64,000 nucleotides of DNA from Lobosporangium transversale (taxonomy: Eukaryota). This document shows, piece after piece, positions 11,631 to 14,600 of this stretch (position 1 is its first letter; each line of letters starts with the position of its first letter). The DNA is taken from NCBI RefSeq assembly GCF_002105155.1, contig NW_019029006.1, positions 372,001-436,000 on the forward strand, written 5' to 3'. The translations under genes and the position numbers were made by a program. The notes under the pieces are model-generated. The model had not been told where the DNA came from. It worked only from the letters and a program-made list of their open reading frames with translations, and ran no database searches.

Positions 11631-14600
11631 CTAGCGTCGTGCGCGCTTTGCAGCCGGAGCAGGCGACTCTTCCGTGGGCTTGTACTTTGCAGGTCTCTCT
11701 TGCCTCTCAATTTGAGCAAGACCGATTCTTGCGATGTTTTCCGCCCCTACTGCGTCACGGTCGAAGAATGCCTTACATGCCCGGCAATATTTAGAGCGAG
11801 GGTACACCGTCTCTAAAAAGCTATCGCAGAGGGGTCGGGGACAGCGGGCGCTGGTGTAAAATTCGTGCGCTCCTACAGCGAAGTGTCCTCGTGCTTTGAC
11901 CTAAGCGTTTCAAATGGCAGTCGTTTATTAGCAAGGGTTCTATGGCTTTCCAGCTTTTCTTACTTTTTTTAAAAAAAGCCATACCTGTGTGACAAGGTGT
12001 CTCGTTATAGCAGTGTGCTTGCTGGGAACTCCTTTACTACTTTCAAAGGACCCTAGGCCGACGACAAGCACTCCTTTTTCCCCGAGCATCTCCAACACTC
12101 GTTGTACCACGTAGTCGAACGTAGCTCGTTGAGCCTTTCGTAGGTCCCATTTTTTTTTCAGGTACCATCTGGACTCGTAGAACTCTTGAAGCACATCCAA
12201 ATTCTTTGATCCTATCTGTGTCTGGGACTCCTCGTTCATCCATTGAAAGCACTCATTGTACGTATCCCTTCCAAACACAGGGATGGCGCTCTCAACCTCA
12301 ATCATTCCCCTTTCACGCTTCCTTTTGTTCAACAGGTGATTGAAGCGGAGGACGGGGAGGTACAAGAACCTGCTTCTCACCTTTACCGTTTGCCGCAAGT
12401 TAGGGTTGTGAGGATCCAGGGAGGAAAACGTAAGGACGTTAACAATACCAGGATCGCATCCGACGATAGTTGTGGTGTTTGCGAATGGGCACCGCCCTGG
12501 TTTGTTAAATGTGAGCTCAACGTTTTCAAGCAGTTTGGAGCTCCTCTTCCAGTTTATGTTTGCATAGTCTTCATCTGTCAGGTCTTCACCGGCTGCCTTT
12601 GAACACATCGTGTTGAGAAATCCCTGAGAAAGCTCCAGTTCTTGGCTGGGGTCTTCTTCATCTACGTCAGACTGCTGCTGTCTCTTCGTCTGGGTTGTGT
12701 CATAGGCAAGTAGATTCAGAACTAGACCGTTGGTAGAAATCGTTCCCTTGAGTTTGAACCGAGTTAAATCTTTGTCCTGTGACTGCAGGGATACTTTGTC
12801 TCGATATCCAAGAACCATGCGATCGCCTCCAATGTCACAAAAGAGAGCCTGAATCAAAACCCCTTTTGTTCCCTGTACACACTCAAACATTGCAGTCTTG
12901 GAAGGATTGTCGAGAGGCAGAATACGCTCCAGCAGCTGCTTGTATCTTCATTCGCCCAGAGGATGTCAACTAGGGCGTGTTCAGACAGATACACATACCC
13001 GGGTGACCAGGGGGACGTAGGAAAGTCTGAGTATTTTTTCACTTTTTTGTTCTCCCGCAAAAAAAAAACTCAATGTCGCTCATATCTTCGTTTGTTTTCT
13101 CGACATCAAACTAGAAAAAAAAAAAAGAAAAAAAAAAAGAGTCTGAATAAAGAGCATTTGATTGCAGAATATACATGAAAATATCCTACACAAGCTATAC
13201 CATTGCGTTCCTGTAGTGCTGCCTTAATGATGTCTGTACTTGGCCCATTAGTAGCTCTGACGCTCTTGGAAATGAGATCTTTTTGGGATCAAAGCCTTGC
13301 ACGTCCCCCAATGTGATGTCTATTTCCTTTATTGGGGAAAGTTCAGTGGTGGCCTTGAAATGTTCATAAGCGAGGAGGTAATGGGGCGTTTCTACCGCCT
13401 TTCCTTGTTTTTTTGCCCTCGCGTAAGCTGAATTGGGGCCACCTTGACCACTTAAAAGAAGGGTGGCGAGACGGAAGGAATAATCATTGCTATCCAAGAC
13501 CTCGTCCAGTGCCTTTTTCCTCGACTTTGCTGCCCCTGGTAACCGCATGATCCTCTCAATGTCCAAGGCAATCGCCCAGTATGCATAGCGGCGTAGTCGG
13601 TTGAGGACAATAACTGCCCCTCGGATCTGGCTTGCAATACTATCCCTTTCATCTGCGTCCAGTCCGCCTTCCCTTGCCATGGAGGCCTTAAGGGACCCAA
13701 TTGTTAAGGCCTTGATAGGGTGCTTACTGCTGTAGCTGTGATCAACCTTCGTAGCATCCTTCAAGTTCCTAATTGGTGCACCTTCTTTTTTAGCCCTGTG
13801 AGGCTTCTTGTCTTTGTGCTTCCGCTTTTGTTTTTTCTGTTGCTTCTTTTTTGCCTTTTTCCGACGTGGTGGATGCTTAAGGCCAGGCCTATCGTGCTGA
13901 CGGCAGTTACTGATATCAACTGTGCGCCCATTCAATATGCTCGCCTTGTCAGAAAAGATGGGCCGGAACTGGTTCCTATGTGACCCTTTCGCTATATAGA
14001 ATGATGGTGTGTCTCTACATTATCCAAGAAAGGGACTGACGATTAGTATTGGGGACGTTTGGTTTCAAGGTCAAAACTATAGCTTGAGCTTTCTTACGTT
14101 CTGCGGCGCTGCGTTCGCCTTTGCTGAGCCATTCTATGGCGAAGATCCTTTCCATTGAGTAGACGCTGCTTGAAGTTATCGAACTCATTGTTTGATGGTA
14201 ACGCTTGGGCCGACGTTTGATGGCCGGAAGTAAAAATGCGGAGAGCTACTCTGAAACGGCCTTCTTCAGAGGCTGCGTTCCTTCCCAACACCTTACTAGC
14301 TTCCCTTAGGTAGTCCCGAAGCATTTTATTGTAGTTCTCGTTCCACGCAACCTTTCGAATTAATCGAAGATTATTAACCGGGCCTAACGTCTCGAGGTTC
14401 CTTGAGTAGTCATTGCCTGCGATGGCACAGAATAACACCGGATGCGCGTGTGATGGCAGTCTTAGTGCTTGGATAACGTTGTCTACATCGTAAACCCCAA
14501 ACTTCCGTCTACGGTGCGGAAGGGGTCGCACTAGGAAGCAGACTCGTTCGTACGCAAAAAAATCAGAGTCTTGGGATATCACGATTCTATCATTCTCCTC

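Follow-up and report, generated by a model that had tools for sequence, protein, structure and literature searches.

Organization of the locus

The window analyzed here, a stretch of 64,000 nucleotides from Lobosporangium transversale, carries on its reverse strand a degenerate and 5′-truncated copy of a multicopy Fanzor1 element. The gene of this element is divided into four exons (Table 1), which match proteins of 1050–1500 aa from Mortierella, Dissophora, Actinomortierella, Entomortierella, Linnemannia, and Benniella; the named carriers are six genera of Mortierellaceae. The initial annotation centered on the terminal exon, and its account of the gene omits an N-terminal domain of the EXO1/FEN1 type, which we found upstream in the same gene. 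As judged from family alignments and a predicted structure, one protein combines an EXO1/FEN1-type 5′ nuclease with Fanzor1, with the putative active sites of both parts conserved. The terminal exon, the introns, and the NLS-like tail are ordinary for Fanzors, and it is this architecture that matters.

Table 1. Features of the Fanzor1 element copy in the window (strand and positions refer to the whole window).
Feature	Position	Strand	Remarks
Degenerate, 5′-truncated copy of a multicopy Fanzor1 element	11500–15025	−	Depth jump and loose ends at 11499 and 15025
Exon 1 remnant, EXO1/FEN1/XPG-type 5′ nuclease domain	14098–15025	−	Seven acidic residues; first ~35 codons missing
Intron 1, 83 nt	14015–14097	−	GTAAG...ACTAAT...TAG; X7 joint 14009–14098 skips 88, with 5 letters between
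Exon 2	13201–14014	−	Linker with Lys-rich patch and start of the Fanzor part
Lys-rich patch in the inter-domain linker	13878–13789	−	18 K/R of 30
Intron 2, 90 nt, GT-AG	13111–13200	−	X7 jump 13105 to 13201, 5 letters between; position also in L001 and L002
Exon 3	11985–13110	−	Middle of the Fanzor part and RuvC-I; two frame breaks, premature stop
RuvC-I Asp in GCDPG	12455–12453	−	In exon 3
Intron 3, 84 nt, GT-AG	11901–11984	−	GTATGG...TTAG; X7 contig skip; position matched in L001
Exon 4, terminal	11631–11900	−	RuvC-II E, zinc finger, RuvC-III D, basic tail, stop
RuvC-II Glu	11862–11864	−	Six residues before the first zinc-finger Cys; aligns with SpuFz1 E541
C4 zinc finger (TNB domain)	11775–11843	−	C-x4-C-x13-C-x2-C; Pfam match and position
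RuvC-III Asp	11754–11756	−	In register with SpuFz1 D606 and mimivirus Fanzor2 chain 9b0l
Basic C-terminal tail, NLS-like, lineage-specific	11634–11657	−	Tail shared by 3 of 13 paralogue models
Conserved right end	11500–11630	−	Candidate omega-RNA scaffold site; 130 nt from stop to end

The terminal exon and the introns

The translation of 11900–11631 (−) is exactly the one quoted in the initial annotation, and the claim that this exon is missing from the list of open reading frames also holds: when a start codon is required, the frame yields a single ORF, of 58 aa, which begins at an internal GTG, and it is therefore absent from the 60-aa ORF track. Exon 4 matches the Pfam family PF07282 (Cas12f1-like TNB) with a score of 28.7 bits (cut-off 26.3; E 1.5e-6).

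Four sequencing runs were compared with positions 11200–15400. Three of them (X1, X2, and X3) consist of DNA, while X7 is putative RNA, an assignment made by guess; X7 has zero cover on the flanks of the element, and this absence was not counted as evidence. The 84-nt intron and its junction, both proposed earlier, were recovered in one X7 contig (depth 8.6), which skips exactly 84 nt with CT..AC ends; the skip was seen in none of the three DNA runs. The intron carries a branch-like GCTAAT 32 nt from its 3′ end, and exons 3 and 4 join in frame across it. An unspliced X7 contig of greater depth than the spliced one (31.2) extends 69 nt into the intron. Because at 12092, 12102, and 12109 the X7 contigs, over their full depth, carry letters other than those of the window, the spliced molecule likely came from another copy or strain. 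Two further lines concern the same position: an intron of the metagenome locus L001, which is 63% identical to the relative P0003, occupies this phase-0 site, and the public paralogue gene model P0074 (one of 13 such models) crosses the same exon 3–exon 4 junction. The X7 skip, the L001 intron, and the P0074 model thus provide three independent supports for intron 3, and 11900–11631 is confirmed as the genuine spliced last exon of a Fanzor1 gene. Further upstream, a reading of the break at 14097–14015 as a frameshift was rejected; the stretch is an intron of 83 nt.

The RuvC triad and the zinc finger

In SpuFz1, the catalytic residues are D383, E541, and D606 (PMC11423790). With a profile of 20 C-terminal relatives as the query, the three acidic residues of the family fall at positions 777, 935, and 1000 of the SpuFz1 chain, and the spacings of 158 and 65 equal those of the catalytic residues. 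The initial annotation had assigned the RuvC-II Glu, the zinc finger, and the RuvC-III Asp to this exon. All of them could be located there, and in the family-profile alignment Glu and Asp superimpose on E541 and D606, the RuvC-II and RuvC-III positions. Within exon 4, the Glu is E13 and the first zinc-finger Cys is C20, and the canonical RuvC-II position is occupied by Gly (12053), which is the shifted-Glu arrangement of Fanzor1. The RuvC-III stretch is in register with SpuFz1, yet scores −0.4 bits on its own, so its assignment depends on the register and on the agreeing Fanzor2 alignment. Searches of the PDB with single sequences returned weak or low-complexity matches only, and rows of CdtB in the profile searches (E 0.04–0.2) were dismissed as chance.

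The triad is well conserved in the aligned rows of the family (D 59/60, E 38/41, D 39/41). The DPG motif (D 59/60, P 45/60, G 59/61) gives RuvC-I its Fanzor1 form, and the four zinc-finger cysteines are kept in 39/41, 34/42, 38/43, and 38/41 aligned rows. Both DPG and the shifted Glu are named as Fanzor signatures in the preprint by Yoon et al.

The fused EXO1/FEN1-type domain

A sequence profile of the family matches FEN1, EXO1, and Rad2 (E 8e-15 to 1e-11) as well as SpuFz1 (E 1.1e-9). The structure of the full-length relative P0005 was predicted with a pLDDT of 61.7 and a pTM of 0.48. In this model, residues 2–311 align with human EXO1 (Z 15.1, rmsd 3.9, 274 aligned) and FEN1 (Z 14.2, rmsd 3.7, 268 aligned) and are predicted to adopt a PIN-like FEN fold with a helical arch. 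Residues 442–1183 of the model align with PpFz1 (Z 18.4, rmsd 7.7, 475 aligned) and SpuFz1 (Z 15.9, rmsd 6.9, 463 aligned); these two being the top matches, the predicted fold is that of Fanzor1 rather than Fanzor2 or TnpB. A Foldseek search with the same model agrees, returning an EXO1/FEN1-like N-terminal part and Fanzor1. Between the domains lies a linker of ~90–130 residues, modeled with low confidence, and contact between them is not resolved in the model.

The residues expected of a 5′ nuclease are kept as well. At the seven FEN-type acidic sites, the residue is present in 35/36, 51/53, 63/66, 65/67, 66/70, 67/69, and 71/72 covered rows (94–99%), and the gateway Lys and Arg are each found in 53 of 54. 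Six of the acidic positions are aligned to EXO1/FEN1 in the profile match, while the first of the seven was assigned by position and is presumably the equivalent residue. The window copy retains all seven. Taking both domains together, all 12 positions occur in 6 of 33 proteins; five substitutions, in three proteins, were counted, and the other misses are unaligned positions.

Both domains were found in 24 of the 25 proteins of at least 900 aa among 157 proteins, a count that is inflated because long proteins were selected with a profile rewarding both domains. Identity matrices computed for each domain over 20 proteins are correlated, with a Spearman coefficient of 0.58 (0 of 2000 permutations) and identities as low as 15–18%; shared ancestry alone would also produce such a correlation. 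In the trees of both domains, four proteins from metagenome or ENA data (P0089, P0123, P0133, and P0139) form a clade of their own. These are two-domain proteins of 1100–1280 aa on environmental contigs of 4–5.5 kb.

A profile search of protein clusters returned 1546 at E 0.001 and 874 at 1e-10, and the Atlas returned one cluster, whose name refers to the TNB domain alone. When relatives of the family were sought elsewhere, there were no loci in viral contigs and none in prokaryote genomes, and metagenome contigs gave only two short loci lacking the element ends. A third homologue search, covering the size range 1261–3600 aa, found none, which is weak evidence.

Relation to known nucleases and to the literature

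The family resembles the Fanzor1 proteins SpuFz1, PpFz1, and GtFz1 in DPG, the shifted Glu, the C4 zinc finger, and the RuvC-III Asp, in the predicted overall fold (Z 13–18 for the P0005 model), and in belonging to a multicopy fungal element. Its introns and NLS-like motifs are also features known for Fanzors (PMC10530073). Unlike these proteins, it has an N-terminal domain of ~310 aa of the EXO1/FEN1 type, a Lys-rich linker, and a length of 1050–1500 aa. The N-terminal part shares with EXO1, FEN1, and XPG (Rad2) the predicted fold (Z 14–15), the seven acidic positions, and the K and R of the gateway; in contrast to these enzymes, it belongs to a mobile element and is joined to a RuvC effector, mostly scores under the cut-offs of Pfam XPG_I and XPG_I_2, and is 13–18% identical to the solved enzymes. 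ISDra2 TnpB and Cas12f share the RuvC and zinc-finger core, with weak matches, but here the canonical RuvC-II residue is Gly, the Glu is shifted, and the protein is much larger. Compared by their description, the unclassified Mucor elements MCi-2 and MCi-5 (Bao and Jurka 2013) are also Fanzor1 elements of fungi, and clear inverted repeats are reported to be lacking in them. MCi-2 is reported to have near-identical 3′ parts and variable 5′ parts, and the main text of that article does not mention an XPG or PIN domain.

Proteins of this family have been listed before. In supplement file 3 of Saito 2023 (PMC10432273), the paralogue ORZ22893.1 is classed as FZ1, as are the two-domain relatives P0067 and P0136 (2 of the 5 accessions queried) and a protein named ‘Rad2 nuclease’. 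Further FZ1 rows of the same file, from Mortierellaceae and Synchytrium, show FEN-like N-terminal motifs by eye. The sequences are thus already catalogued. A description of the fusion was not found in the available parts of Saito 2023, Xu 2024, Jiang 2023 (with two supplements), the Yoon preprint, and Bao and Jurka 2013, nor in those of Altae-Tran 2023, a 2026 review, a 2026 preprint, and the PIN classification. Full-text literature searches combining Fanzor with XPG, Mortierella, Exo1, or Rad2 also yielded no such description, although subscription papers, Repbase, and preprint supplements may hold one.

Basic tail, linker, and nuclear import

A monopartite NLS follows the consensus K-(K/R)-x-(K/R). 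The initial annotation regarded the end of the protein as NLS-like, likening it to the NLS of c-Myc, and the tail does fit this pattern; it is, however, not conserved, as only 6 of 30 other tails carry the pattern. Specifically, it occurs in 9 of 34 complete tails, or in 6 of 30 without the window and three paralogues of the same species. Among these 30, 14 tails run no more than 7 residues past the last conserved motif, and 3 others are basic and off-pattern. As a chance background, the pattern is present in the last 10 residues of 14 of the 347 frames of at least 60 aa in the window.

A second, stronger basic stretch lies in the linker between the two domains, where the window copy and six close relatives have 15–18 K/R per 30 residues. 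Judging from these alignments, of the two candidates for import the Lys-rich linker is better conserved, and the basic tail may add to import. NLSs are predicted for about 60% of Fanzors, and of 22 N-terminal ones put to the test, 21 were functional (PMC10530073), so that nuclear import is expected for such a protein rather than special.

State of the window copy and of its paralogues

In runs X2 and X3, contig depth is ~10 on both flanks and 140–164 for single contigs inside the element, corresponding to roughly 15 copies, a rough figure since depth is no copy number. Contigs of other copies depart from the window at 11499 and 15025, and the flank contigs show no differences from the window in X1, X2, and X3. 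The closest named records are 13 gene models of L. transversale on 12 contigs, which also makes the element multicopy; for those models that were aligned, segments match the window copy at 76–98%. These models encode 223–694 aa, and none of the 13 has the full RuvC triad, a count to which gene-model errors may contribute. The family may consequently be dead in L. transversale.

The window copy itself is damaged in several ways. It lacks ~35 N-terminal codons that are present in the paralogues P0032 and P0163, the gateway Arg is replaced by Trp at 14837–14835 (the sole such row of 54), so that the Lys/Arg gateway is not retained in this copy, and one codon is deleted near 14675. Two frame breaks follow: near 13059, a T run is two longer than in most of the contig depth, and near 12941, there is one base fewer (CC to C) than in most of it. 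Spliced as it stands, the gene reaches a stop at 13041, codon 606 (after 605 codons), upstream of RuvC-I, and no single open frame passes through the three RuvC motifs. Each frame break is a change in run length and might be an error of assembly; the truncation and the R-to-W change are of another type.

This raises the question of whether this very copy is intact and active, with the breaks introduced in assembly. Both breaks are indeed of the run-length kind, and among the contig rows listed the intact form predominates, with 133.2 of 133.2 and 139.6 of 139.6 contig depth in X3. Those contigs, however, pool ~15 copies and drop rare variants, and neither the lost N-terminus nor the R-to-W change resembles a run-length error. 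Moreover, contigs of single-copy depth show 0 differences from the truncated junction in three runs and extend 29–30 letters into the element, against a bridging rule of 31 letters. An intact window copy is accordingly very improbable. The view of the initial annotation that the nuclease is competent and nuclear fits the residues of the family, as far as sequence can indicate it, but does not apply to this copy, which is truncated, carries the stop at 13041, and has the R-to-W change. Its sequence suggests that the window locus is a degenerate, dead copy; the annotated paralogues also appear to be pseudogenes, again with a possible contribution of gene-model errors. The CpG value of the element is 0.83, compared with 0.57–0.86 in host ORFs; with no depletion, there is no sign of methylation decay.

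Possible role of the fusion

The explanation that we favor, and consider rather probable, is that an intact protein of the family cuts under RNA guidance and then trims 5′ ends, steering repair toward homing. By analogy with known Fanzors, an omega-RNA from the right end of the element would guide the Fanzor part, and RuvC would cleave the empty site in a TAM-dependent manner. The N-terminal domain, to go by its predicted fold and residues, would provide a 5′ exonuclease or flap activity that resects or clips the cut ends, whereupon repair would copy the element back in. The cut would in this way be coupled to resection, promoting homologous repair. New insertions would probably need a transposase supplied elsewhere. 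Homing has been demonstrated for prokaryotic TnpB and proposed for Fanzor (PMC13565253).

The two-nuclease protein might instead mobilize the element by itself: it would break DNA under RNA guidance, carry out 5′ resection, and start one-ended copying at the right end, with no transposase involved. The 26 proteins scanned contain no transposase, recombinase, or HUH family, as such a mode of movement would predict; the left end of the element, however, is absent in the window copy, so a separate transposase gene may exist upstream. SpuFz1 elements, which have no transposase either, are believed to be mobilized in trans (PMC10432273). One-ended copying would also be in keeping with the sharp right end kept in the window copy while the left end is missing, with a 5-bp direct repeat across both junctions, and with at least 8 internal skips or deletions in the DNA runs. 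Against the last point, internal deletions are common in ordinary DNA transposons. Weighing these points, we regard mobilization by the protein itself as unlikely. Were it true, this would be a transposase-free eukaryotic element in which one protein cuts, resects, and copies, that is, a natural cut-and-resect genome writer.

Another possibility is that the 5′ nuclease serves omega-RNA maturation, the removal of R-loop RNA, or the clearing of transposition flaps, uncoupled from the Fanzor cut. PIN domains of the FEN group include DNA flap, exonuclease, and RNA-degrading members (PMC5499597), and the low-confidence stretch between the two domains of the predicted model would agree with independent activities. 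EXO1 and FEN1 are nevertheless the best structural matches, the K/R gateway residues are kept, and the maturation of the guide in other Fanzor1s needs no such domain. We consider such an uncoupled role doubtful, slightly more so than self-mobilization.

The two-domain architecture bears on how Fanzors serve their elements, a question still debated, as homing needs resection. Sequence and model together point to an old and widespread fusion of a putative RNA-guided RuvC nuclease with a 5′ nuclease of the resection type. P0005, P0008, P0013, P0067, P0089, and P0136 are natural intact candidates for editors that would favor homologous repair or long deletions.

Ends of the element and genomic surroundings

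In each of the four runs, pieces of the right end exceed the ORF in abundance. At 11500–11620, the excess over the ORF is several-fold, and 13 contigs are present at 11569 in X2 and X3. This suggests many non-autonomous or ‘ghost’ copies. Internally deleted copies, for example from 11620 to 12594, were seen in the three DNA runs. The predicted fold of the right end is no better than that of shuffled sequences (z +1.45; 0 of 20 windows below −2), it has no match in Rfam, and the 64-kb window holds no second copy of it. The 5-bp direct repeat, at 15027–15023 and 11502–11498 (−), overlaps both junctions and lies partly inside the element on each side; it may represent a target duplication, microhomology, or chance.

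The surroundings include two tRNA-Pro(AGG) genes, within a 118-bp duplicate of 91.5% identity (15532–15649 and 34080–34197), one of them ~500 bp upstream of the truncated element. Near both genes, a short repeat ending in a poly-A run (17498–17561, 34395–34462, 33871–33904, and 16359–16415) resembles the 3′ ends of non-LTR retroelements. Another repeat, 87 bp long and with 76% identity between its copies (16190–16276 and 17346–17429), is probably decayed mobile DNA. The stretch 15740–15810 (+) looks tRNA-like by eye, possibly a decayed tRNA or SINE head, and received no tRNA call from ARAGORN and none from Rfam. Beyond the right flank of the element, 10500–10900 (−) belongs to an ordinary host gene that is rhodanese-domain-like by eye.
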